A stretch of 64,000 bases of DNA from a virus (IMGVR_UViG_3300032087_003094:1-64000), one strand, 5' to 3'; counted from the first letter of the stretch, positions 4,342-52,091 are shown. Translations and numbers: made by a program. The notes: a model not told the origin generated them from the sequence alone.

Positions 4342-4659
4342 ATGAAATACGGTGTAAATCTTAAGATTGACGTTTCAAAGATTGAAAAAGGTAGATTATT
4401 CAAAGGAGCTAAAGGTACTTATTTGGATGCTCAAGTGTTTATCGATGTTAATAATGTTGGCGAATTCGGTGATAACGGAATGATAGTTCAGCAAATAACC
4501 AAAGAAGAACGCCAAAACGGCGTGAAAGGGCAAATACTGGGCAATGCCACAGTGTTCTGGAAAGGTCAGAGTGATAACAATCAAACTAAACAGCAAACAC
4601 CAAGCCAGCCTCAAGAGCAGAGCTTTGATAATAGTTTTGACGACGACATACCCTTTTAA
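4342..4659 (+). CDS. Non-canonical ssDNA-binding protein
   Basis: Acidic DDDIPF tail; occupies the same slot as the canonical SSB in B. Confidence 0.7.
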   Translation: MKYGVNLKIDVSKIEKGRLFKGAKGTYLDAQVFIDVNNVGEFGDNGMIVQQITKEERQNGVKGQILGNATVFWKGQSDNNQTKQQTPSQPQEQSFDNSFDDDIPF

Positions 4660-4679
4660 CCATAAGGAAGGTAACGAGA

Positions 4680-4961
4680 ATGAAAATTAATAAATTTATA
4701 ACTATTTCAAGTAGAGGTTCTTGTCGTTTAACAGCTTCTAGCCCGCGCTTAGAAGTGGATGAAATATCTATGAACTTAAAGATAGAAATACCTGACGCTA
4801 TTTTTAAAAAGCCAAGACTTGAAGCTAGTATCACCGTTCCAGATGAGGCTGCAGCTACCGAAGCAATGAAAAGCATTGTCTACGATAATGTTGAAGAAAT
4901 TGTCAATCAAGCAACTGGACTGAATTTTTCAATTTCAGTAAAGAAATATGACGATGAATAA
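4680..4961 (+). CDS. Hypothetical protein
   Basis: ORF with RBS in the operon. Confidence 0.65.
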   Translation: MKINKFITISSRGSCRLTASSPRLEVDEISMNLKIEIPDAIFKKPRLEASITVPDEAAATEAMKSIVYDNVEEIVNQATGLNFSISVKKYDDE

Positions 4962-4985
4962 CCTAACACAAGAGCAAGCTAAATA

Positions 4986-5411
4986 ATGACGTCCTTTACC
5001 ATAAACTCAAAGCAAGCAGTGGAAAGCTTCCAAGAGTTTATACAAGAAGAATTCATAAAAGAAAAATACTTGATAGCTAAGATAGTCAAGGCTACTAGGC
5101 TGCAAATACAAAACCGATGGATTCAAAAGTTTTATAATATGGTATCAGGTCAAACAGGACAACCAAGGCAAACGCTAGTCAACCACTGCAAGTATTATCA
5201 CGGCATGCCTATACTGTTAGCAGACCAGCCAGAACAAGCGGAACTATGGCGTAAAATGATGATTCCGTTAACAGAGCAAGAAAGGCTTGCAGCTATGGAA
5301 ATAACAGCTGTAACAAGCTTGATGGACGTTCACGAGTGTTCAGATTATATTAAACAATTAATAGCTCATTTTGACCACTGTGAGCTACCAAGAAAACAAT
5401 GGAGAGAGTAG
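4986..5411 (+). CDS. NinB-like recombination protein
   Basis: RLQIQNRW and VTSLM motifs, upstream of ninG; near-identical copy at 46179-46604. Confidence 0.6.
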   Translation: MTSFTINSKQAVESFQEFIQEEFIKEKYLIAKIVKATRLQIQNRWIQKFYNMVSGQTGQPRQTLVNHCKYYHGMPILLADQPEQAELWRKMMIPLTEQERLAAMEITAVTSLMDVHECSDYIKQLIAHFDHCELPRKQWRE

Positions 5412-6629: not shown

Positions 6630-7124
6630 GTGAGGATGATAACCCAAGAAAAATTAAATGAAATTTTTTATTATGACGGTTTTGATCTCTACTGGGCTAA
6701 ACCTACAGGCAGAATGAGGAAGGGGGATTTGGCTGGTACTGATTCTCACGGTTATAGGCAGGTTCAAATCAATAAAAAAATATACAGGGTTCACCGTATT
6801 ATATGGTTTATGGCATTTGGGCATTTTCCTTACGGTGTCATTGATCATATTAACGGCAACAGGTCAGATAATAGACTGCAAAATCTAAGAGATGTCACGT
6901 ATAAAGAAAACAATAGAAATCAGAAAATATCCAAGATAAATACCAGCGGAATGACTGGGGTTTCATGGAATTGGAGGAGGAAAAAATACAGTTCTTATTT
7001 TTGGAGGAATGGAAAGCAAAACTACTTAGGGTTCTTTTCTTCTTATAAAGACGCTGTTAATGCAAGGTTGGAAGCCAATAAAAAACACGGATTTCATAAA
7101 GGTCATGGAAAAGCCGCGGTTTGA
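6630..7124 (+). CDS. HNH homing endonuclease with AP2-like domain
   Basis: HRIIW..IDHINGNRSDNRLQNLR..NTSGMTGVSW..YLGFF. Confidence 0.9.
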   Translation: MRMITQEKLNEIFYYDGFDLYWAKPTGRMRKGDLAGTDSHGYRQVQINKKIYRVHRIIWFMAFGHFPYGVIDHINGNRSDNRLQNLRDVTYKENNRNQKISKINTSGMTGVSWNWRRKKYSSYFWRNGKQNYLGFFSSYKDAVNARLEANKKHGFHKGHGKAAV

Positions 7125-39804: not shown

Positions 39805-39848
39805 AATAATAATACACAACCAGTCAAACTAGTTTATAATACATATAC

Positions 39849-39927
39849 GCGGCTAGGTTTAGCGACCGAAAAACAAACCCCTTATTTGTTTGCCGCTCAT
39901 ATTTCATAAGGGCTGATGCTAAAGGAG
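39849..39927 (+). ncRNA. C4-like antisense/leader RNA with downstream targets
   Basis: Three-way junction; loops TTTAGCG and CCCTTAT pair with TGCTAAA and ATAAGGG next to the RBS. Confidence 0.65.
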
Positions 39928-39933
39928 CGTTAA

Positions 39934-40447
39934 ATGATAGATCTAAAAACCTGCACAAGAGCCGATTTTATAGAGGCTTACACAAATCTAGAAAACTCTC
40001 ACAAGCACCTAGAAAGCGAAGTTCATCATCTTAACGAGCGCCTGCAGGAATACGAAGGCATTCAAACTGATGATGAAAAGGAGGCGGAGTTTCAAAAAAT
40101 TCTGGACGATGTACGAAAAGAAAGGAAATCTCAAAACTACCCGAACTAGGTGGAATAAGCTAAGCAATAAGAAAAAGAAGCTAATATTCGACCACCTGCC
40201 AAAGTATGTGAAATCAACCTACAAAGATGCTCGATACCCATCAAGAAAAAATGCAGAGGTCTACATTAGTAAAGAAGCATGGCTTGATGAAATTATTGAG
40301 AATAAAGACTATCAGAAGTTTTCACCACAGCCAGCGGTAGGAAGCGCATCATTTAAACCAAGCCCGATAAAAAATAGAAGCAAGGAGCTAGATAGGCTTA
40401 GAGAGCAGAGTAAATCGGTTAACATTAAAGAGAGGTTAGGGTTATGA
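39934..40447 (+). pseudogene. Frameshifted homolog of the 487-999 replication protein
   Basis: One extra A in the run at 40094-40099 splits the ORF. Confidence 0.8.
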
Positions 40448-41788: not shown

Positions 41789-42364
41789 ATGAAAACAACA
41801 TTAGGTAAGATTTGGGAGTTCGGTCCTTGCTGTAGAGAGGATGAGTCTGGCGGGTGGGGTTTGCTAACTAAAAACTTAGGAACTAGCGATCACTCAAAAG
41901 AAGTTGATTTGATGGAAATATTAAAATCAAACGGAATTAAAGATGCAGTTTGGGCTTTAAGATGTTTTGATTATCTTGATTATTGCCTTTTTCTTGCTGA
42001 TGTTGCAGAAAGCGTACTTGATATTTATGAGAAGAAAAACAGTTCAAGCGCTCCGAGATTAGCAATTCAGGCAGTTAGAGATTATAAGGCTGGAGGTATA
42101 ACAAAAGAAAAATTACGATCTGCTGCTGATGCTTATGCTGCTTATGCTGCTGCTGATGCTTATGCTGCTGCTTATGCTGCTGATGCTGCTTCTGCTTATG
42201 CTGCTGCTTATGCTGCTTATGCTGCTGATGCTGCTTATGCTGCTGCTGATGCTGCTGCTGATGCTTCTGCTGCTGCTGATGCTTCTGCTGCTTATGCTGA
42301 TGCTAGATCAAAAAAATGGGATGAAATAGAACAATTATTCATTAAGCATTTTGGAGATAAATAA
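41789..42364 (+). CDS. Ala-rich low-complexity phage protein
   Basis: ADVAESVL..PRLAIQAVR followed by an A/D/Y/S tract. Confidence 0.75.
   Translation: MKTTLGKIWEFGPCCREDESGGWGLLTKNLGTSDHSKEVDLMEILKSNGIKDAVWALRCFDYLDYCLFLADVAESVLDIYEKKNSSSAPRLAIQAVRDYKAGGITKEKLRSAADAYAAYAAADAYAAAYAADAASAYAAAYAAYAADAAYAAADAAADASAAADASAAYADARSKKWDEIEQLFIKHFGDK
42121..42304 (+). repeat. GCT-based coding microsatellite
   Basis: Only GCT, GAT, TAT and TCT codons. Confidence 0.95.
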
Positions 42365-42742
42365 ATGAGTCAATTAACATTTTTCGAACAGTATGTAGAA
42401 TCAGTATTCGGCCTTGAAGATGTAACTTACATCTCAGACGAGCAAGCGCTATCAAATCTAGGTTTTATGCAAGTCAACCATCCTGATGAGTATCAAGAGA
42501 TAATCGACCAAGTAAACGCAAGCTATGAGCCGCCAGAGGGTAAAGAATGCGACCTCGATGAATTAACAGACGCTATCACTAATAGAAACCCAATGAAGTT
42601 CGTTGTGGAATTAGAGCGATTAATGATAGTCGAGTTCAAAGCTTACATTGATGAAGTTCAGCAAGAAATCGCATACAAGAGTGCAAATCCAGAGCGTGAC
42701 GGCTCTTATGAGACTAAGCAAGCAAGGGAGATGGTGTTATGA
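42365..42742 (+). CDS. Hypothetical protein (homolog of 2742-3119)
   Basis: Near-identical sequence. Confidence 0.8.
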
Positions 42743-43449
42743 GAGAGATTAAGTTCAGGGCGTGGGATAAAGATAAAAGCAAGGGTTATCTGATGCACGG
42801 CTATCAGTATAGAAAAGCTGAATATCACCCTTTAGCCACTTCTCGCGGTTATGTTTTAGAGCATAGGCTTGTTATGGAGAATCATCTTGGTAGGTATTTG
42901 GAAAAAGGGGCGGTTATCCATCATAAAAATGGTGTTAGAGATGATAACAGGTTGGAAAACTTAGAGTATCATCAAGAGCAGTCTAGGCACGCAAAGTCAC
43001 ATGATTCCGGAGTTAGAAATAAAAACGGGCAGTTTGTTGCAGAATCGCAAGAATTTCAAAACAAAAAATTTAAACTTTTTAATAAAAATTCTAAACAGGT
43101 TCAAATTTTTACTCTGCAAAAGCTTATATCTACAACATTTAGAAGAAGTCAATTTGAGTATTGCGGAGAGTTTACCGGTCTAAAAGACAAGAATGACGTT
43201 GAGATTTATGAGGGGGATATAGTTAAAGTAGTATATGAGGAATATCCAGATGAAGATTTTGCGATCGGAAAGGTGTGGTGGTTTCAATGCTATTATCCGG
43301 CTTTTGATGTTTATGTTCCTTCGGAGCGAGCAAAGACAGGATTTGAAAGCTACTCTGATGGATATAACGCGTTCACATGCGATGAAATATCAATTGAGGT
43401 AATCGGCAACATCTACGAAAACCCAGAACTACTAGAGGTTAAACAATGA
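42739..43449 (+). CDS. YopX-family protein with an inserted HNH domain
   Basis: [11 protein letters not shown] / [22 protein letters not shown] / [27 protein letters not shown]. Confidence 0.85.
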
Positions 43450-43537
43450 AACTAACAATAGAAGAAAGAAAAGAGCTAGCATGGGTAATAGCTGGCTGCA
43501 TATTTTTAATATCATTAATGAGTTTGGTGGAGTCGAT

Positions 43538-43720
43538 ATGAAAACAGAAACGCAAGAAATGGAGAGCAATTTAGCTCTCGCGTGGTTCGATGGTGTTTAT
43601 ACTCAAGATCAAGCACAAGTATCTGCCGAGCTTCAAGGGTTGAGTTTTGAAAATATAGTAAACGAATACTCAAAGCTTTATCACGATGCAGAAAGCGCGG
43701 GGGCTTATCAATGGAATTAG
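43538..43720 (+). CDS. Hypothetical protein (homolog of 3202-3375)
   Basis: Conserved sequence. Confidence 0.7.
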   Translation: MKTETQEMESNLALAWFDGVYTQDQAQVSAELQGLSFENIVNEYSKLYHDAESAGAYQWN

Positions 43721-44367
43721 TAGAAAAATTAGCAAATATTCAACAACGCTTAGTTGCGCCAAAAGGGCAAACTAACAAGTTTGGCGGGTACAAATATCGA
43801 TCTTGCGAGGATATTTTAACGGCCTTAAAACCATTACTTGATGATTGCGCGCTTACCATTACCGACGAAATTCAAATGATAGGCGACCGCTTTTATGTAG
43901 TCGCAACAGCAACATTAACAAACGGCAAAGACTCAATTAGTGTTAAAGGCTACGCTAGGGAGTGCGAAAGCAAAAAAGGGATGGATGATAGCCAGTTAAC
44001 CGGCTCGTGTAGCAGCTACGCTAGAAAGTACGCCCTAAACGGCTTGTTCTGTATTGATGACTCAAAAGACGCTGATGCGATGGACAATAGAAAACCGCAA
44101 CTGCCAAGCAAGCTAAAAAAGATTTATCAGCAAGCGCGTGAGCACTACGATGCTGGTGATTTGCAGGCGGTTAGAGAGGTTTTAGCTAGCTTTGAAATGA
44201 TTGAGCAACAAAGAGCGGTAATGCTTGAGTTCGTATCAAATGAAAGAGCGGCAATAACCAAATATGTAAAAGAAAACGCGGATAGTCGGTGCGATGTCCA
44301 AAAAGCGGATTACTTAACAGCGAAAGAGCATGATCAACTGTGTAAAAACTACGGATTCAACGGATAA
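43711..44367 (+). CDS. erf: ERF-family ssDNA annealing protein
   Basis: APKGQTNKFGGYKYRSCEDI..QLTGSCSSYARKYALNGLF. Confidence 0.9.
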   Translation: MELVEKLANIQQRLVAPKGQTNKFGGYKYRSCEDILTALKPLLDDCALTITDEIQMIGDRFYVVATATLTNGKDSISVKGYARECESKKGMDDSQLTGSCSSYARKYALNGLFCIDDSKDADAMDNRKPQLPSKLKKIYQQAREHYDAGDLQAVREVLASFEMIEQQRAVMLEFVSNERAAITKYVKENADSRCDVQKADYLTAKEHDQLCKNYGFNG

Positions 44368-44382
44368 CAAAAGGGTAATAAA

Positions 44383-44844
44383 ATGAAAGGCGTAAACAAA
44401 GCAATAATAGTGGGGACGTTAGGTAAAGACCCAGAAATTAGATACGCTCCAGCAGGCGCAGCAATAACAAATATCAGCGTTGCAACAAGCGAAAGCTGGA
44501 AAGATAAAAATTCTGGCCAAAAACAAGAGAAGACAGAATGGCATCGAGTGGTATTTTTTGGGAAGCTGGCTGAAATTGCTGGCGAATACTTGAAGAAAGG
44601 CTCTCAAGCTTATATTGAAGGCAAGCTTCAAACCCGTAAATGGCAGGATAAACAAGGTCAAGACCGTTACACAACTGAAATCGTTGTTGATGGCTTTAAC
44701 GGCGTTATGCAAATGTTAGGCGGCAAGGGTGACAACAATCAAGCAAAGCCGCAATCAGAAAGTCAAGGTAGTCAACAATACCAAAAAGACGCACAGCAAG
44801 CGCAGCAATTTGATAATAGCTTTGACGACGACATACCCTTTTAA
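44383..44844 (+). CDS. ssb: Single-stranded DNA-binding protein
   Basis: Canonical [25 protein letters not shown]. Confidence 0.97.
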
Positions 44845-44857
44845 CCATAAGGAATAG

Positions 44858-45088
44858 ATGATGTTTGAATCGGTAGCGGTATGGGCAGATGTTGGGCATG
44901 GAAAGTTTTTAACTAAAGACAGACACCTTACTAGTAGAGAGGCTCGGACAGTCTGCGAATTGTTGGAGAAAAACGGCTTTGGAGGTGAGGGTTTAGTATT
45001 TCCAGAGTCAACAGAGGTTAGAGAAATTAACACCGACGGCTCGCACTTAACAGAATTCGAGAAAAAAGCTGGCTTCGACGGTAAATAA
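44858..45088 (+). CDS. Cassette gene 1, hypothetical
   Basis: Starts inside the repeat. Confidence 0.7.
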   Translation: MMFESVAVWADVGHGKFLTKDRHLTSREARTVCELLEKNGFGGEGLVFPESTEVREINTDGSHLTEFEKKAGFDGK

Positions 45089-45105
45089 TCAACCATAAGG
45101 AATAG

Positions 45106-45237
45106 ATGATGGGACCAATAAGATTTAGTTTTAAACCATTAGTGGTAATAGCCATTCTTCTTTCTGCGGTTGTAGGGTGGGCGGTCATAGAACTTTTGAT
45201 ATGGCTGATTAAAAATGTCAGTGTAACTTTTGGATAA
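45106..45237 (+). CDS. Cassette gene 2, 43-aa membrane peptide
   Basis: Hand translation MMGPIRFSFKPLVVIAILLSAVVGWAVIELLIWL. Confidence 0.65.
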   Translation: MMGPIRFSFKPLVVIAILLSAVVGWAVIELLIWLIKNVSVTFG

Positions 45238-45244
45238 GGAATAG

Positions 45245-45517
45245 ATGATGAGTGTAGGCGGGAAAGTAATAGATCATAAAATATTCGATGAAAAAGTTTA
45301 TATAAACACAACTGACGGTAGTGAGTGCGCTATCTATGTGGAAAGAGACAAAAACTCAGAGTCGGTATCAATTAACGATGTTGTTTGGTGGCAGGGCGAT
45401 AAAGCATACTGGACTACAAAGGATAGAAAGGCTCAGGTTGAAACAGTCTTATTTAGACGCGGCTTTTCTGGTGTTCCTTATCCGCACGACAAGCCAGAAG
45501 TGAAGCCTAAATATTAA
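45245..45517 (+). CDS. Cassette gene 3, hypothetical
   Basis: Starts inside the repeat. Confidence 0.7.
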   Translation: MMSVGGKVIDHKIFDEKVYINTTDGSECAIYVERDKNSESVSINDVVWWQGDKAYWTTKDRKAQVETVLFRRGFSGVPYPHDKPEVKPKY

Positions 45518-45534
45518 CCAACCATAAGGAATAG

Positions 45535-45801
45535 ATGATGATTGAGCTATCTAATAATCAAATTTCAATACTAGGCAAGCCAAATTTTGCATGCGCACCT
45601 ATTGCAAAACTACTGATAAAGCATTCGATTTATGAAGATAAAGAAAACAAGGCGGAATATGAGCAAGCTGTTTTCATCCATTGGGCGAGTGATTTGCTTG
45701 AAAAATTTGGTGATGGCTGGGTTGATGAAGCAAAAAGAATAATTGACAAGCTGTTAGAAGCCGAATCTTTAATCAACCATAAGGAAGGTAACGAGAAATG
45801 A
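45535..45801 (+). CDS. Cassette gene 4, hypothetical
   Basis: Starts inside the repeat; ILGKPNFAC..KAEYEQA. Confidence 0.7.
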   Translation: MMIELSNNQISILGKPNFACAPIAKLLIKHSIYEDKENKAEYEQAVFIHWASDLLEKFGDGWVDEAKRIIDKLLEAESLINHKEGNEK

Positions 45802-45944
45802 GGTGGCTTTGGATAAAAATTAGATGTTTCTTTGGTTGGCATGTATGGGCTTGGAAACTTAGAAGCGGGTCAATCATCTATATGCAAGGTGACCCTCCAA
45901 GTGATGTTAAATGTAAATATTGTGGAGAGATATGGGATGAATAA
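45798..45944 (+). CDS. Small Cys/His protein
   Basis: CFFGWH..CKYCG; occupies the slot of 4680-4961. Confidence 0.6.
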   Translation: MRWLWIKIRCFFGWHVWAWKLRSGSIIYMQGDPPSDVKCKYCGEIWDE

Positions 45945-46179
45945 CCTAACACAAGAGCAAGTGAGGGAAAAAAGAATTAATGCGTTTTGGAACGGTGTTT
46001 TACTTAACTGGTATTTTAGTGGTAAGTATTGGTATTGCGGGACAGCTAAAAGAAATGCCAAAGTGAATGGAATAACTTGCAGAAAAAGTGGCAGCGGAAA
46101 CAACAAAGACGAGGCTTTTCAGGATTTTAGGAATGCTAATGGGGTTTATGATTGTCAGCCACAAGAGAAAGCTAAATAA
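45937..46179 (+). CDS. Hypothetical protein
   Basis: MNNLTQEQ start shared with the minigene at 4954. Confidence 0.6.
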   Translation: MNNLTQEQVREKRINAFWNGVLLNWYFSGKYWYCGTAKRNAKVNGITCRKSGSGNNKDEAFQDFRNANGVYDCQPQEKAK

Positions 46180-46604
46180 TGACCTCTTTCACCATAAACT
46201 CAAAACAAGCCGTTGAAAGCTTTCAAGAGTTTATACAAGAAGAATTTATAAAAGAAAAATACTTGATAGCTAAGATAGTCAAGGCCACAAGGTTGCAAAT
46301 TCAAAATCGATGGATACAACAGTTTTACAATATGGTGTCAGGTCAGACAGGCCAGCCAAGGCAAACGCTAGTCAACCACTGCAAGTATTATCACGGCATG
46401 CCTATACTGCTAGCAGACCAGCCAGAACAAGCGGAACTATGGCGCAAGATGATGATTCCGCTAACGGAAGAAGAAAGGCTTGCAGCTATGGAAATAACGG
46501 CTGTAACTAGCTTGATGGACGTTCACGAGTGTTCAGATTATATTAAACAGTTGATAGCTCATTTCGATCACTGCGAGCTACCAAGAAAACAATGGAGAGA
46601 GTAA
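46179..46604 (+). CDS. NinB-like protein
   Basis: Near-identical to 4986-5411. Confidence 0.6.
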   Translation: MTSFTINSKQAVESFQEFIQEEFIKEKYLIAKIVKATRLQIQNRWIQQFYNMVSGQTGQPRQTLVNHCKYYHGMPILLADQPEQAELWRKMMIPLTEEERLAAMEITAVTSLMDVHECSDYIKQLIAHFDHCELPRKQWRE

Positions 46605-46837
46605 TGAAAGTAGATGAGTATGATGTGCCAAGGCTTATTCAAAAAATGGAATACAGCTACTCTGCAATGGCGTTTACGGTTTTATTCTTTAATGATAGGC
46701 AAAGCTCATTCCCTACTGATCTTGTATGTCCATCCATAGGCTTAATGCAAAGCAAGCCAACAAGAATGCAGTGGCTGGAGGCTGAAAACAATATAAGAAA
46801 ATACGTTGATAAGAATTGGAAATCAATGAATTCTTAA
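46592..46837 (+). CDS. Hypothetical protein
   Basis: Swapped ORF between the ninB-like gene and ninG. Confidence 0.55.
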   Translation: MERVMKVDEYDVPRLIQKMEYSYSAMAFTVLFFNDRQSSFPTDLVCPSIGLMQSKPTRMQWLEAENNIRKYVDKNWKSMNS

Positions 46838-46851
46838 GAGATAGCTAAATA

Positions 46852-47472
46852 ATGCCAAACGCTAAACTAAAATGCTGCAACTGCAAAGATAGGTTCAAGC
46901 GCGAATCTATGACCAAATTACCAGTGGGCAACTTCTGTAGCCAGGATTGCATTGTTGAGTACGCAGCTAATAAGGGCAAGAGGGCAGTTAAGAGGCAAAT
47001 AGCAAAAAAAAAGAAAAAAGACAACCTAGAAAAAAAGCTTTTTAATATTAACGATGTCAAGAAGCAGTTAGAGCTAACACAGCCTGTATTTAACAAGCTT
47101 AGACGATTACAAGAGTTTGAATGGTTCAAGCAAAGAGGTTTGGAGCCTGAGTGTATAAGTTGTGGAAAAAAGAATATGGACTGGTGTAACGGCCATTTTA
47201 AAACGGTAGGCTCTCAGGGAGGCTTAAGGTTCGACCCTATGAACAGTTATTTGCAATGTAATCGATATTGCAACAAAGGGCTAAGTGGGAATATTGAAGG
47301 CAATAAAAACACTCGAGGCTATAAGGTTGGACTGGCTGAGAGGTTCGGCGCTGACAGGGCTAAAGAGATAATAGAATACTGTGAGATTGATCAAGTAAGA
47401 AAGTGGACTGGTCAAGAGCTATTTGAAATGAGAAAAGAATTCAACAAGCAAATTAGAGATTTAGAAGCTTAA
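46852..47472 (+). CDS. ninG: NinG/Rap endonuclease
   Basis: CISCG..NGHFKTVGS..LRFDPMN..QCNRYCN. Confidence 0.9.
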   Translation: MPNAKLKCCNCKDRFKRESMTKLPVGNFCSQDCIVEYAANKGKRAVKRQIAKKKKKDNLEKKLFNINDVKKQLELTQPVFNKLRRLQEFEWFKQRGLEPECISCGKKNMDWCNGHFKTVGSQGGLRFDPMNSYLQCNRYCNKGLSGNIEGNKNTRGYKVGLAERFGADRAKEIIEYCEIDQVRKWTGQELFEMRKEFNKQIRDLEA

Positions 47473-47473
47473 C

Positions 47474-47545
47474 AGCGTCTAGCACTTCCTTTCTGCGGGT
47501 TTTGGCCGAATATCCCAACTCCCGCTTTAGGTTAGGCGTTTTTTT
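47474..47545 (+). terminator. Structured RNA element / terminator
   Basis: Homolog of 6544-6615. Confidence 0.7.
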
Positions 47546-47862
47546 ATATTTTTGATACAATAAAAGAGTTCTGCTGAAACGAGGGGCTGTTTGCCCCACT
47601 AAGCCGCCTTTCCTAACAGATTGGCGGTTTTTTTATCCCTGTTGTATAATTACCTATCTTTTAATCAAGGTGTAAGAACAATGCCGATACAATGGTCAAG
47701 CTATCCGTATTTAATAAACGGTGGCGAATCTCAGAAAACAACAAGACTGTATTGTCTGGGATTGGATCTACCCAACAAGCGATAGCAATTGCTAAGCGTT
47801 ACGGGTTTGTATTGTCAGAGTTAAAGTATATTGATTATTTGAAAGCGGCATAAGGTTTAGGA

Positions 47863-48575
47863 ATGAACGAAGGGAATACTTTGATCCAGATTAGCGGAGA
47901 TAATAAGGGCTCAATACCCTTAATAATTATTTTCCTGCTTGTCACAATTGGCTTGCTTATGTGGGTCACGCTTAGTCTAATCTCTCTGCGAGATACATTT
48001 AAAGAGGCTAAGACGGAGATAAGAATTCTTCAAATGCACATCCAAGACCAAAATGCTATTTTAATTCGAGAGGGCATTAAAAAGCCTGGAGACTCGACAA
48101 CGGGACCAACGGACCCAGATAAGCTAGAGGTTAAAAGTAGTGAGCGCTATTGAATGTAAGATTATTATATGCGGGAATGAGGCTGGAAACGCTTCCCAAT
48201 CATCAAAGGATGTTGTGAGCGATTTAGCCAAAAATCCAGAGCTTGCAAAAAAAGTAATCAGCGTGCAGGAAGATTACGTTGCAAAAATGCACAAGGCGCT
48301 TTCTGAGCTAACGAAAAATGACTGATAAAGCGAGGATTATAACTTATTGGCCGGTCGCTTTAGTTACCGTTGTTCACATTCTTGCAGTTGGCGTTTTGTA
48401 TGGAACATTAACCACTGAAATGCAGACGTTTAACAAGTCGCTTATTAATGTCGTTGATGAGCTAAAAGAGACTAATCGCTCTATACAAGGCTTGAAGGAG
48501 AAAGATATTGAGTTGGGTTTTTTGCAAAAAAGGCTTGATGAAAAAGTTAAGCGGCTAGAGACTAAGCATCCATGA
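47863..48575 (+). CDS. Three small ORFs before the endolysin (47863-48153 TM, 48140-48325, 48318-48575 TM plus coiled coil)
   Basis: Overlapping ORFs with TM segments; holin candidates. Confidence 0.55.
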
Positions 48576-50015: not shown

Positions 50016-52091
50016 ATGGCTTTTGTTTCTGGGGCTACCACCAACCCATCAGCATCCTACAACCCTGCTAGCGGCACTAATACAATGCTTGTCTGGGTTA
50101 CTGGTGCTACCGGTGTCGGTACGGCTACAGTTAGCGGTCAAGATTTTGGTGGGACTTCAATGTCCGAGATTGCCAATTCTGACCAATCAGTCGATTTAGC
50201 GGGTAGTGGTGATCCTACAATTGCATCAGCCTTCCTATTAACTCCAGGAACAACAAGCCAAACCTGCTCCCTAACATGGTCTAGCTCTCGCCTAAACGAA
50301 GGCGGCTATGCGTTCACAGTGGGCGATGCTGGAAGTATAACCGGAACATCAGGTGGCACTTATTCAGGTTCAGGAACTACCGAGCCAAGCTTAAGTTACG
50401 ATGCAGAGGACGGTGATACAGTTGTTTATGTTAGGCAGCATTGCCGCGGTGGTGGGGCTATATCATGGACAGCGCCGACCAATTTCACGGAAAGGTCAAA
50501 TATCGCTCTAGTTACAAGTCCTGGACGTCGCTCAATGGCTGTATGGACTCGAGATGTAACAAGTACACTATCTGGCCAAACAGTTCAAGCAGGCGAATCA
50601 GCAGACGGTAACGGCGTTCATCATGTATTCGTTATTAAAAAATTCTCATCTGATGTGACAGCTAATATGACACTAGAGACTATCTCAATCGATAGTTTTA
50701 ACATGTTTGTACTGGCATCAAATATAGCCTCTCTAATCAACACAGTAGACAATTATGAATTAGTCGGAAGTGGAGTGTCTAATTTTGGCGCAGGAGGCTC
50801 AAATACCTCCGATGCTACCTATAGGGATGAAACTGACGAGCTAATCACTATTAGAAATGGCAGTGCAACAGCTGATGTTTATGATTTGGGAAGTTACGGC
50901 ACTGCAACAAAAACCATCACGCTAAACTTTGACGGCTCAGATTGTGAAGGTATTTGCGATATGGGTGGCGGTGAGTTTGCTACTTGCTCAGAGGATGGTG
51001 GAAGATACCAATTTAATATCTATGATTGGCCTAGCGACGTAGGAACGACCGCAACCAGCAAGCAAGAATTCACAATAGCCGCTAATGCCGCTAATAACAA
51101 CAGTCAGCTGGAGGGGATTGGTTACGACCGAGCAAACAAGATATTTTATTTGGTCGGCGAAGGTGAAGAAACTAGTACGGATAGGGAGTTTTTTAAGGTC
51201 TTGCGCCCCGGGGTTAATGGTCGTTTTGGTGATACGTCTACTAGTTATGCTTACAATGATGCGGATGACGGTGACGGATGGTCGCTAGATGATTATATTT
51301 CTCAGCCTTGGGACCCTGAAACGGCTTTTTCATCGTATGGCGCAACGGGTGCGACGTTTGACTTGTCGAGTATTGACTTTGATCACGATTCTGGCAATGT
51401 TTTAATCGCCTCGCACACAGGTCAAAAGGTTTTGCAGGTTGATGTTACTGACGGTTCAGTAGTTGCTGAGGTAGACAATACAGACCTAACCCAAATGGAA
51501 GGAATAGCAATACTTCCAGATGGCAAGCTGATGATGATGGGTGAAGCTGACGAGTATCAAATATTCGAATCAATTACCACAATTAACATGACTACTGCAA
51601 CAATGACAATTCAAGGGCATAATATGACCATTGAAACGGCTGTTGCGGAAGTTATGACGGCTGATTCAGGCAGTTATTCAACAACAGGAACAGATTTAGA
51701 CTTAAGGGCTGGTCGAAAAATATCAGCTGATAGCGGTGCCTACTCTACAACTGGAACAAATATAGACCTAGTTGGAGCGTTTAAGTTGCTGGCCGAGGCT
51801 GGGAGCTACTCAGTATCAGGAACTGATGCAGCTTTATCTAAAGGCTCTCGCCTAGAGGCTGAAACTGGTTCATATTCTTACACTGGCACAGCTTTAGATT
51901 TAGATATTGCTGCAAAAATGACTTTAGATAGTGGATCTTATATAATAACCGGAACAGATATATCTCTTTTAGATGGCGAAAGCCTCTGGACAGACACAGC
52001 TATTACAGAAGTATCTTGGGCAGATACAGCCTTAGATGGCTCTACTTGGACAGATACAACAAGCACGTCAACAACTTGGATTGATTTATAA
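50016..52091 (+). CDS. Fibre protein: N-domain, YjiK-like propeller and repeats
   Basis: Combines domains of 11560-13545 and 10429-11559; WTD-repeat tail. Confidence 0.65.
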   Translation: MAFVSGATTNPSASYNPASGTNTMLVWVTGATGVGTATVSGQDFGGTSMSEIANSDQSVDLAGSGDPTIASAFLLTPGTTSQTCSLTWSSSRLNEGGYAFTVGDAGSITGTSGGTYSGSGTTEPSLSYDAEDGDTVVYVRQHCRGGGAISWTAPTNFTERSNIALVTSPGRRSMAVWTRDVTSTLSGQTVQAGESADGNGVHHVFVIKKFSSDVTANMTLETISIDSFNMFVLASNIASLINTVDNYELVGSGVSNFGAGGSNTSDATYRDETDELITIRNGSATADVYDLGSYGTATKTITLNFDGSDCEGICDMGGGEFATCSEDGGRYQFNIYDWPSDVGTTATSKQEFTIAANAANNNSQLEGIGYDRANKIFYLVGEGEETSTDREFFKVLRPGVNGRFGDTSTSYAYNDADDGDGWSLDDYISQPWDPETAFSSYGATGATFDLSSIDFDHDSGNVLIASHTGQKVLQVDVTDGSVVAEVDNTDLTQMEGIAILPDGKLMMMGEADEYQIFESITTINMTTATMTIQGHNMTIETAVAEVMTADSGSYSTTGTDLDLRAGRKISADSGAYSTTGTNIDLVGAFKLLAEAGSYSVSGTDAALSKGSRLEAETGSYSYTGTALDLDIAAKMTLDSGSYIITGTDISLLDGESLWTDTAITEVSWADTALDGSTWTDTTSTSTTWIDL

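Follow-up and report, generated by a model that had tools for sequence, protein, structure and literature searches.

The modular theory of phage genomes is reportedly due to Susskind and Botstein, and since that theory it has been argued, mostly from single-copy junctions, whether mosaicism is guided by linker sequences or arises by random illegitimate recombination followed by selection. In lambdoid phages the exchange of modules has been proposed to be directed by short conserved sequences on their flanks, according to the account of Clark et al. (2001 J Mol Biol 311:657) given in PMC2327257. Recombinases of the Red, RecET and Rad52-like kinds act on homologies that are diverged or very short, Orf and Rap contributing (PMC2327257, PMC3945230), and the minimum homology quoted for Red-beta is about 30 bp (PMC3945230). 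In T4-type phages, ORFans are shuffled by PeSL repeats (Arbiol et al. 2010, PMC2839356; PMC4122927), elements of about 100 bp composed of a sigma-70 early promoter and a stem-loop terminator, for which excised mini-circles have been shown (PMC2839356). The SAS of Cluster K mycobacteriophages is a 13-bp repeat, GGGATAGGAGCCC, found 3-7 bp before start codons in 11-19 copies per genome (Pope et al. 2011, PMC3203893); its copies are dispersed over the non-structural half of the genome and stay with the same gene families, and the role proposed for them is translational rather than one in shuffling (PMC3203893).

The locus described here lies in a window of 64,000 nucleotides, which makes up the opening 64 kb of an IMG/VR virus record of 74,480 nt. 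Self-comparison of the record shows two related phage genomes arranged head to tail, A (1-39456) and B (39457-74480), whose early regions form a mosaic of 83-95% identity and whose late regions have no DNA similarity. The two are joined at equivalent points: A and B agree at 99% over their opening 105 nt, and the record stops 209 nt before the second unit (B) is complete. The tandem may be genuine, or the assembly may have concatenated two phages that occur together. The array under study belongs to the early region of B and has a counterpart in A. Relatives were found by an exact 17-mer scan of IMG/VR, which returned seven related contigs, six of them from two samples; nine genomes were compared in all, plus one contig from an independent run, X4.

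A 12-nt core, AACCATAAGGAA, has five exact matches in the window, all on the plus strand (4658, 44843, 45091, 45520 and 45775), against 0.47 expected, and none of 100 shuffles reaches five. The copies that an earlier note on this DNA had placed at 44843, 45091, 45234 (partial), 45520 and 45775, and at 4658-4682 in A, are all present. The motif is found nowhere else in the 74-kb record, and the copies of B are contiguous within about 1 kb. We refer to the repeat with its adjoining bases as the joint, which occurs in two main forms: type 1 is ...ATAAGGAA-TAG-ATGATG, and type 2 is ...ATAAGGAA-GGTAACGAGAA-ATGA. The four type-1 copies of B continue ...TAGATGATG, and the core copy that follows them continues ...GGTAACGAGAAATG. 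The full 21-mer AACCATAAGGAATAGATGATG is present at 44843-44863, 45091-45111 and 45520-45540, and the 17-mer ATAAGGAATAGATGATG starts at 44847, 45095, 45234 and 45524, these four exact matches comparing with 0.27 expected even with three mismatches allowed. On the minus strand the window holds a single near-match to the 17-mer (50619-50635, two mismatches), which is at chance level.

All features of the array are encoded on the plus strand. It begins directly downstream of genes for a 218-aa ERF-family single-strand annealing protein (43711-44367; PF04404, E 1.7e-37; phrog_155) and a 153-aa SSB (44383-44844; PF00436, E 2.5e-39), as the earlier note had read it, and the TAA stop of the SSB gene supplies the first bases of joint copy 1 (44843-44863). 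This copy heads cassette c1 (44858-45088; 76 aa, no family), also present in X4. Copy 2 (45091-45111) heads F8 (45106-45237), a 43-aa hydrophobic peptide that is also found in G002, G006 and G007 and is precisely missing from X4. F8 stops at the TAA inside joint copy 3 (45234-45250), which consists of the 17-mer only and is preceded by TTGG, not AACC, the left 4 nt being the coding end of F8. Copy 3 heads the 90-aa F12 (45245-45517; also in G002, G007 and X4), and copy 4 (45520-45540) heads the 88-aa F13 (45535-45801), of which G004 and G006 have versions of 98% identity, flanked on either side by other neighbours. The four genes begin at the ATGATG of their joints and belong to separate families in an all-against-all blastp comparison, in agreement with the earlier description of them as unrelated. 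The last residues of F13, NHKEGNEK, are encoded by the type-2 joint AACCATAAGGAAGGTAACGAGAAATG(A) at 45775-45800, which in turn heads a 48-aa ORF, c5 (45798-45944); c5 is swapped for other sequence in X4 (306 nt) and in all relatives. Beyond it are a gene bounded by a second set of joints (45937-46179, discussed below), the conserved right flank formed by a 141-aa NinB/Orf recombination mediator (46179-46604; phrog_7283, E 1.6e-13; 89-94% nucleotide identity among relatives), a 206-aa NinG/Rap junction endonuclease (46852-47472; PF05766, E 2.6e-24), and a terminator-like hairpin with a T-run marking the operon end (47523-47545). The order of annealase, SSB, array, NinB, NinG and terminator places the array in a lambda-nin-like region. 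In a consensus scan of 42300-48000, promoter- and terminator-like sites were not in excess and the one terminator was that after NinG, suggesting that the cassettes are promoterless.

In genome A, a type-2 joint (AACCATAAGGAAGGTAACGAGAATG, 4658-4682) directly follows the gene for a 105-aa protein with an SSB-like acidic tail. The earlier note had called this an empty array; the single copy heads a unique 93-aa gene of its own (4680-4961), so that the site is occupied. Its description of the type-2 form as a closing copy must likewise be given up, as this variant also heads variable genes and occurs twice in a row in G003 and in mid-array in G001.

Across the nine genomes there are 38 core copies, all in one orientation: 24 of type 1, 10 of type 2 and four others. 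The 17-nt block is 90-100% invariant over these copies and the sequence immediately outside it is random; the type-2 consensus reaches about 34 nt. All 24 type-1 copies are in the sense orientation and have UAAGGA at 4-7 nt from the ATGATG that follows. UAAGGA is complementary to the anti-Shine-Dalgarno sequence, and at this spacing from an ATG it can surely serve as a Shine-Dalgarno site. The type-2 core, at 14-15 nt from the ATG, is not positioned to act as such. The type-1 joint also carries TAA, TAG and TGA, one in each frame, and real upstream ORFs terminate at each of the three; stop-to-start distances at joints are at most 17 nt. The C-terminus of F13 is set by whichever joint comes next, ending ...NHKE-stop before type 1 and ...NHKEGNEK-stop before type 2. 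One type-1 copy in G001 (locus L033, 5801-5817) has CAG in place of TAG, and there the upstream cassette runs in frame into the next to give a 138-aa fusion ORF, the kind of fusion that the stop within the joint ordinarily averts. In seven other phages, F13 has homologues (53-60% identity) with no joint, unrelated upstream sequence and a single initial methionine, indicating that the first ATG and the joint belong to this phage group and not to the gene. Ribosome binding alone cannot explain the conservation of the core, since the core is kept in type 2 and at a second, gene-less site described below. We found no symmetry, inverted repeat or conserved hairpin at the joints, and the folding z-scores of the four type-1 joints range from -0.9 to +1.5. 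As a target for antisense RNA the joint was rejected: a candidate C4-like RNA locus (39835-39936) has a target of its own next to it, and all that it has in common with the joint is ATAAGG.

Set beside the described systems, the locus resembles the PeSL regions in that a repeated expression signal flanks small ORFans in a hypervariable region, close relatives differ by gene insertion, loss or replacement located exactly at the repeat, and the mechanism proposed is homologous recombination between repeat copies. PeSL genes are their own transcription units, however, whereas the joint is 17-21 nt long (up to about 34) and has neither a -35/-10 pair nor a stem-loop; and PeSLs are found in T4-type phages, while the present genome is lambdoid-like (ERF, SSB, NinB, NinG), with apparently promoterless genes linked by stop, Shine-Dalgarno and start. 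The lambdoid boundary sequences, so far as the cited account describes them, share with this locus the region from recombination genes to NinB/NinG, densely packed small genes, phage recombination functions alongside, and non-homologous segments bounded by short conserved sequences, the breakpoints here falling on the joints. In lambdoid coliphages the boundaries vary from junction to junction and are usually present in a single copy per genome; here one identical sequence is repeated in tandem, in up to eight copies, in two otherwise unalignable lineages and at a second genomic site. Like the SAS, the joint is a short asymmetric repeat with Shine-Dalgarno core bases before ATG, associated with non-structural genes in one orientation and sometimes containing the upstream stop, but it differs in sequence, and its copies form a contiguous series whose intervening genes are exchanged. 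Integrons offer a further parallel in their single-gene cassettes of one orientation, variable in number and order and drawn from a pool common to several genomes; integron cassettes are also promoterless and stacked behind a common promoter, as the cassettes here may be. Unlike integrons, the array has no IntI, attI or imperfectly palindromic attC, its boundary being a linear translation joint of 17-21 nt. Morons carry their own promoter and terminator, and the cassettes, by consensus scan, have neither.

The absence of an integrase, which the earlier note had asserted for the array, was borne out in the five genomes profiled (G000, G001, G002, G006 and G007), none of which has a match to Phage_integrase (PF00589) or Resolvase (PF00239), that is, to a tyrosine or serine recombinase; all 14 control genomes matched PF00589. 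The note had also wondered whether the cassettes might be anti-defence genes, and searches of Pfam, PHROG and the ESM Atlas with cassette proteins gave no indication of such a role. In a comparison of 25 cassette proteins with Pfam, none scored above the curated cut-off except for one DUF3222 match; the five cassettes of the window had no match in PHROG, and two of them (F12 and F13) matched only unnamed ESM Atlas clusters.

The earlier note had named a fixed gene order in relatives as grounds for giving up its accordion-like array, and tabulation of the relatives shows that the order is not fixed. Each relative (the seven IMG/VR contigs and X4) has between one and eight joint copies, with differing genes and orders, and content and neighbours are combinatorial. 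In B the order is SSB, c1, F8, F12, F13 and type-2 c5. G002 and G007 have an HTH gene, F24, F8 and F12, then type 2 and different genes; G004 has an HTH gene, u69, F13 and u82; G003 and G005 have an SSB-like gene, F27 and type 2, with more following; and G006 has u75, F8, u69, u62, F13 and type-2 u67. The array of G001 holds at least eight cassettes, none in common with G006. F8 is thus found with three different left and two right neighbours, F12 with two left and at least four right, and F13 with three on each side.

Outside this group the joint appears to be lacking. The 21-mer gave three unrelated single matches in 185,579 species genomes (Fusibacter, a Chlamydiales MAG and a Clostridiales MAG), read as chance, and the 19-mer gave eight singletons in JGI/ENA metagenome contigs with no similarity past the motif. 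No relative of the cassette region was found among GenBank phages, where the SSB and ERF genes alone match, at about 70%. An exact repeat array is missing from three distant NinB-bearing phages (about 60% amino-acid identity), which suggests that the high-identity joint is specific to the clade. In one of them (L069, 6080-6610), three successive small genes are each preceded by a degenerate AACAATAAAGGAA, perhaps an earlier or degraded version of the joint.

Comparison of the arrays shows that their differences are located at the joints. Counting homology blocks of at least 100 nt and endpoints inside arrays only, 35 of 40 distinct endpoints fall within -12 to +32 of a core, where 22.6% would be expected (binomial P about 5e-18, the endpoints being partly interdependent), and two of the five off-joint endpoints sit at a degenerate copy. 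Shared cassettes are 95-98.5% identical, with homology opening 5-10 nt before one core and closing 7-22 nt past the next, as in the block B 45519-45786 against G004 (98.1%). Over their whole length, genomes B and G006 have just 949 nt of alignment, and the best two blocks are F8 (95.2%, 167 nt) and F13 (97.9%, 288 nt) with their joints. Such identity across diverged lineages indicates that single cassettes moved more recently than the lineages split. Conversely, G001 and G006 align over 38 kb and have no cassette in common, their arrays sharing the joints alone, which marks the array as a replacement hot spot. The cassette stacking put forward in the earlier note therefore stands as regards variable arrays with breakpoints on the repeat; recombination itself would be the reading that this comparative anatomy suggests.

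Pairs of empty and occupied sites point in the same direction. When contigs of four public runs were compared with the region, X4 (35.9 kb, 151x coverage, from a different study) was found to join c1 straight to F12, skipping 45095-45233, the 139-nt F8 unit; 17 nt are shared at the joint, and the junction has 238 nt on its shorter side. In the same contig F13 and c5 are replaced by other sequence. A second site is found in relatives just past the NinG terminator. In G007 it consists of a lone core copy followed by promoter-like sequence, with no start codon or gene; G002 has cassette F20 between two core copies there, and G005 has F19. F19 and F20 stand side by side in the array of G001. Direct repeats flanking an insert, with a single copy at the empty site, are as recombination at the repeat predicts. 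Junctions in two further runs, X2 and X3 (44863 to 45097, 45514 or 45767; 23-30 nt on one side), were not counted, since the repeat alone can produce them.

Other gene replacements in the window behave alike, as the earlier note had expected. Many different genes open with a second joint, J3 (ATGAATAACCTAACACAAGAGCAAG, encoding MNNLTQEQ), and close with J4 (AGAGAAAGCTAAATAATG), in which the gene ends ...AGAGAAAGCTAAATA-ATG (QEKAK-stop). These joints lie at 45937-45961, 46164-46181 and 46837-46854 in B and at 4954-4988 in A, and the gene at 45937-46179 opens with J3 and closes with J4. In A, J3 and J4 overlap by 8 nt, leaving an empty slot with a 10-codon remnant (MNNLTQEQAK-stop) where B has an 80-aa gene; relatives have one or two J3-headed genes.

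The genes for recombination are themselves variable. A block of about 148 nt (43394-43541), 93-95% identical among relatives and containing a 31-aa hydrophobic ORF, is followed by non-homologous annealase modules, ERF in B and G002 and RecT in G007, or by other genes in G004; A has Rad52 and Gp157 as its annealase module. Comparison of these sequences indicates that the recombination module is itself exchanged at this conserved joint. The earlier note had assigned a causal role to the adjacent ERF/Sak annealase, which the relatives do not bear out: arrays adjoin ERF (B, G002), Rad52 with Gp157 (A), RecT (G007) or an HTH gene, and the largest arrays, those of G001 and G006, lie between lysis-like genes and the small terminase in genomes with no match to ERF, RecT or Rad52. 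Upstream of the annealase gene in B, a single ORF (42739-43449) combines HNH_3 (residues 42-77) and YopX (113-233), the YopX-type genes of relatives being shorter with the same start. Also nearby, a tandem repeat with a 9-nt period (42090-42323, GCTGCTKMT-like) encodes an Ala/Tyr/Asp-rich low-complexity stretch in a 191-aa ORF (41789-42364). In A, an HNH_3 endonuclease gene (6636-7124) directly follows the NinG terminator, at the position of the second docking site of relatives.

We consider it probable, from the comparison of these genomes, that the joint has two functions, coupling the translation of neighbouring genes and offering a short homology at which cassettes are exchanged. It would be the standard link from one gene to the next in an operon that belongs to a lambda-nin-like region and carries small accessory genes, none with a promoter of its own. 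We propose that, because a single block of 17-21 nt gives three-frame stops (TAA, TAG, TGA), the UAAGGA Shine-Dalgarno sequence and the ATGATG start, any ORF on its left would be terminated and any ORF on its right translated by coupling; and that, since the same sequence lies between all cassettes and is common to co-living lineages, it would double as a short homology patch. Crossovers between non-allelic copies, whether in co-infecting genomes or within one genome (with a circle looped out), would add, delete, replace and reorder whole genes undamaged. We infer that the joint couples translation and that homology at the joint causes the exchanges, for which phage annealases, host RecA or both would be candidate enzymes. 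Several points count against this reading. The identity at the joint, 17-21 nt (about 34 nt in type 2), is at or below the Red-beta minimum of about 30 bp (PMC3945230), so that events at the joint should be rare. Selection after random illegitimate recombination would likewise leave junctions at gene boundaries, the largest arrays are in two phages with no detectable ERF, RecT or Rad52 annealase, the known array-bearing genomes number only nine, and, as most of them come from two metagenome samples, the long-range order of cassettes could be partly chimeric. On a broader claim the same comparisons leave us evenly divided: the joint may be a recombinase-free docking standard of co-occurring marine phages, such that ORFs gaining it would join a common promoterless cassette pool and move between unrelated lineages and between two genome sites purely by short-homology recombination.

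An alternative is that the repeat is an expression signal only. It could be a strong coupling ribosome-binding site, or the operator through which a translational repressor or a small RNA co-regulates these early genes, on the model proposed for T4 RegA and for the SAS of Cluster K mycobacteriophages, with exchange proceeding by ordinary illegitimate or flanking-gene recombination and selection keeping the junctions at gene boundaries. The placement and invariable sense orientation of UAAGGA in the type-1 copies would suit this, as would the invariance of positions outside the Shine-Dalgarno bases, which is what a binding site would show, and there is an established precedent in the SAS repeats, which are linked to starts and for which a role in translation was proposed (PMC3203893). 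However, the core is kept where it is not a ribosome-binding site, both in type 2 and at the second site of G007, which has no start codon; inserts are flanked by direct copies and empty sites have one; the motif is attached to no other gene of the record; and repeat-delimited cassettes of 95-98% identity occur in an otherwise unalignable phage. We therefore regard an exclusively regulatory repeat as rather unlikely, although the expression-signal and exchange roles of the joint are compatible and can coexist.

It is also conceivable that cassette movement depends on break-induced repair, and not on spontaneous crossover at short homology, after cleavage at or close to AACCATAAGGAA by a sequence-specific enzyme, which might be an HNH endonuclease of the homing type or a recombinase not recognised as such. 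The 12-nt core is invariant to an extreme degree that would fit a recognition site, and HNH_3 genes are close by, one fused to YopX in B and one at the second docking site in A, but these HNH genes are themselves variable, the regions examined contain no such enzyme that all genomes with arrays have in common, the five genomes profiled have neither integrase nor resolvase, and the site has neither symmetry nor a hairpin. This makes an enzyme-directed system very improbable. Least credible of all is that the shuffling is an artefact of assembly, with co-occurring strains joined at the repeat or at shared cassettes. The window itself consists of two related genomes head to tail, two samples account for six of the seven related contigs, and many of the short-sided X2/X3 junctions are explicable by the repeat alone. 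Against this, a 21-nt repeat is shorter than the k-mers and reads used, and reads must hence span each adjacency; a Logan contig matches 44825-46277 without a difference; the order F24-F8-F12 recurs in two samples (G002 and G007); G001 and G007 close on terminal repeats; and the c1-F12 junction, with 238 nt on its shorter side, lies in the 35.9-kb, 151x X4 contig from another study.

If our preferred reading of a coupling joint that doubles as a homology patch is correct, the array would illustrate cleanly, in nature, the long-standing proposal that phage genes are shuffled at "linker sequences". With an identical joint that occurs up to eight times, marks nearly every breakpoint, is shared across unrelated lineages and comes with empty and occupied pairs, the linker hypothesis becomes directly testable. 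The joint would also be a natural scarless part, with a three-frame stop, ribosome-binding site and start within 21 nt. The cassettes would form a pool of fast-moving early genes and, if the docking-standard claim also holds, the system may be a functional analogue of the integron that operates with neither integrase nor attC.
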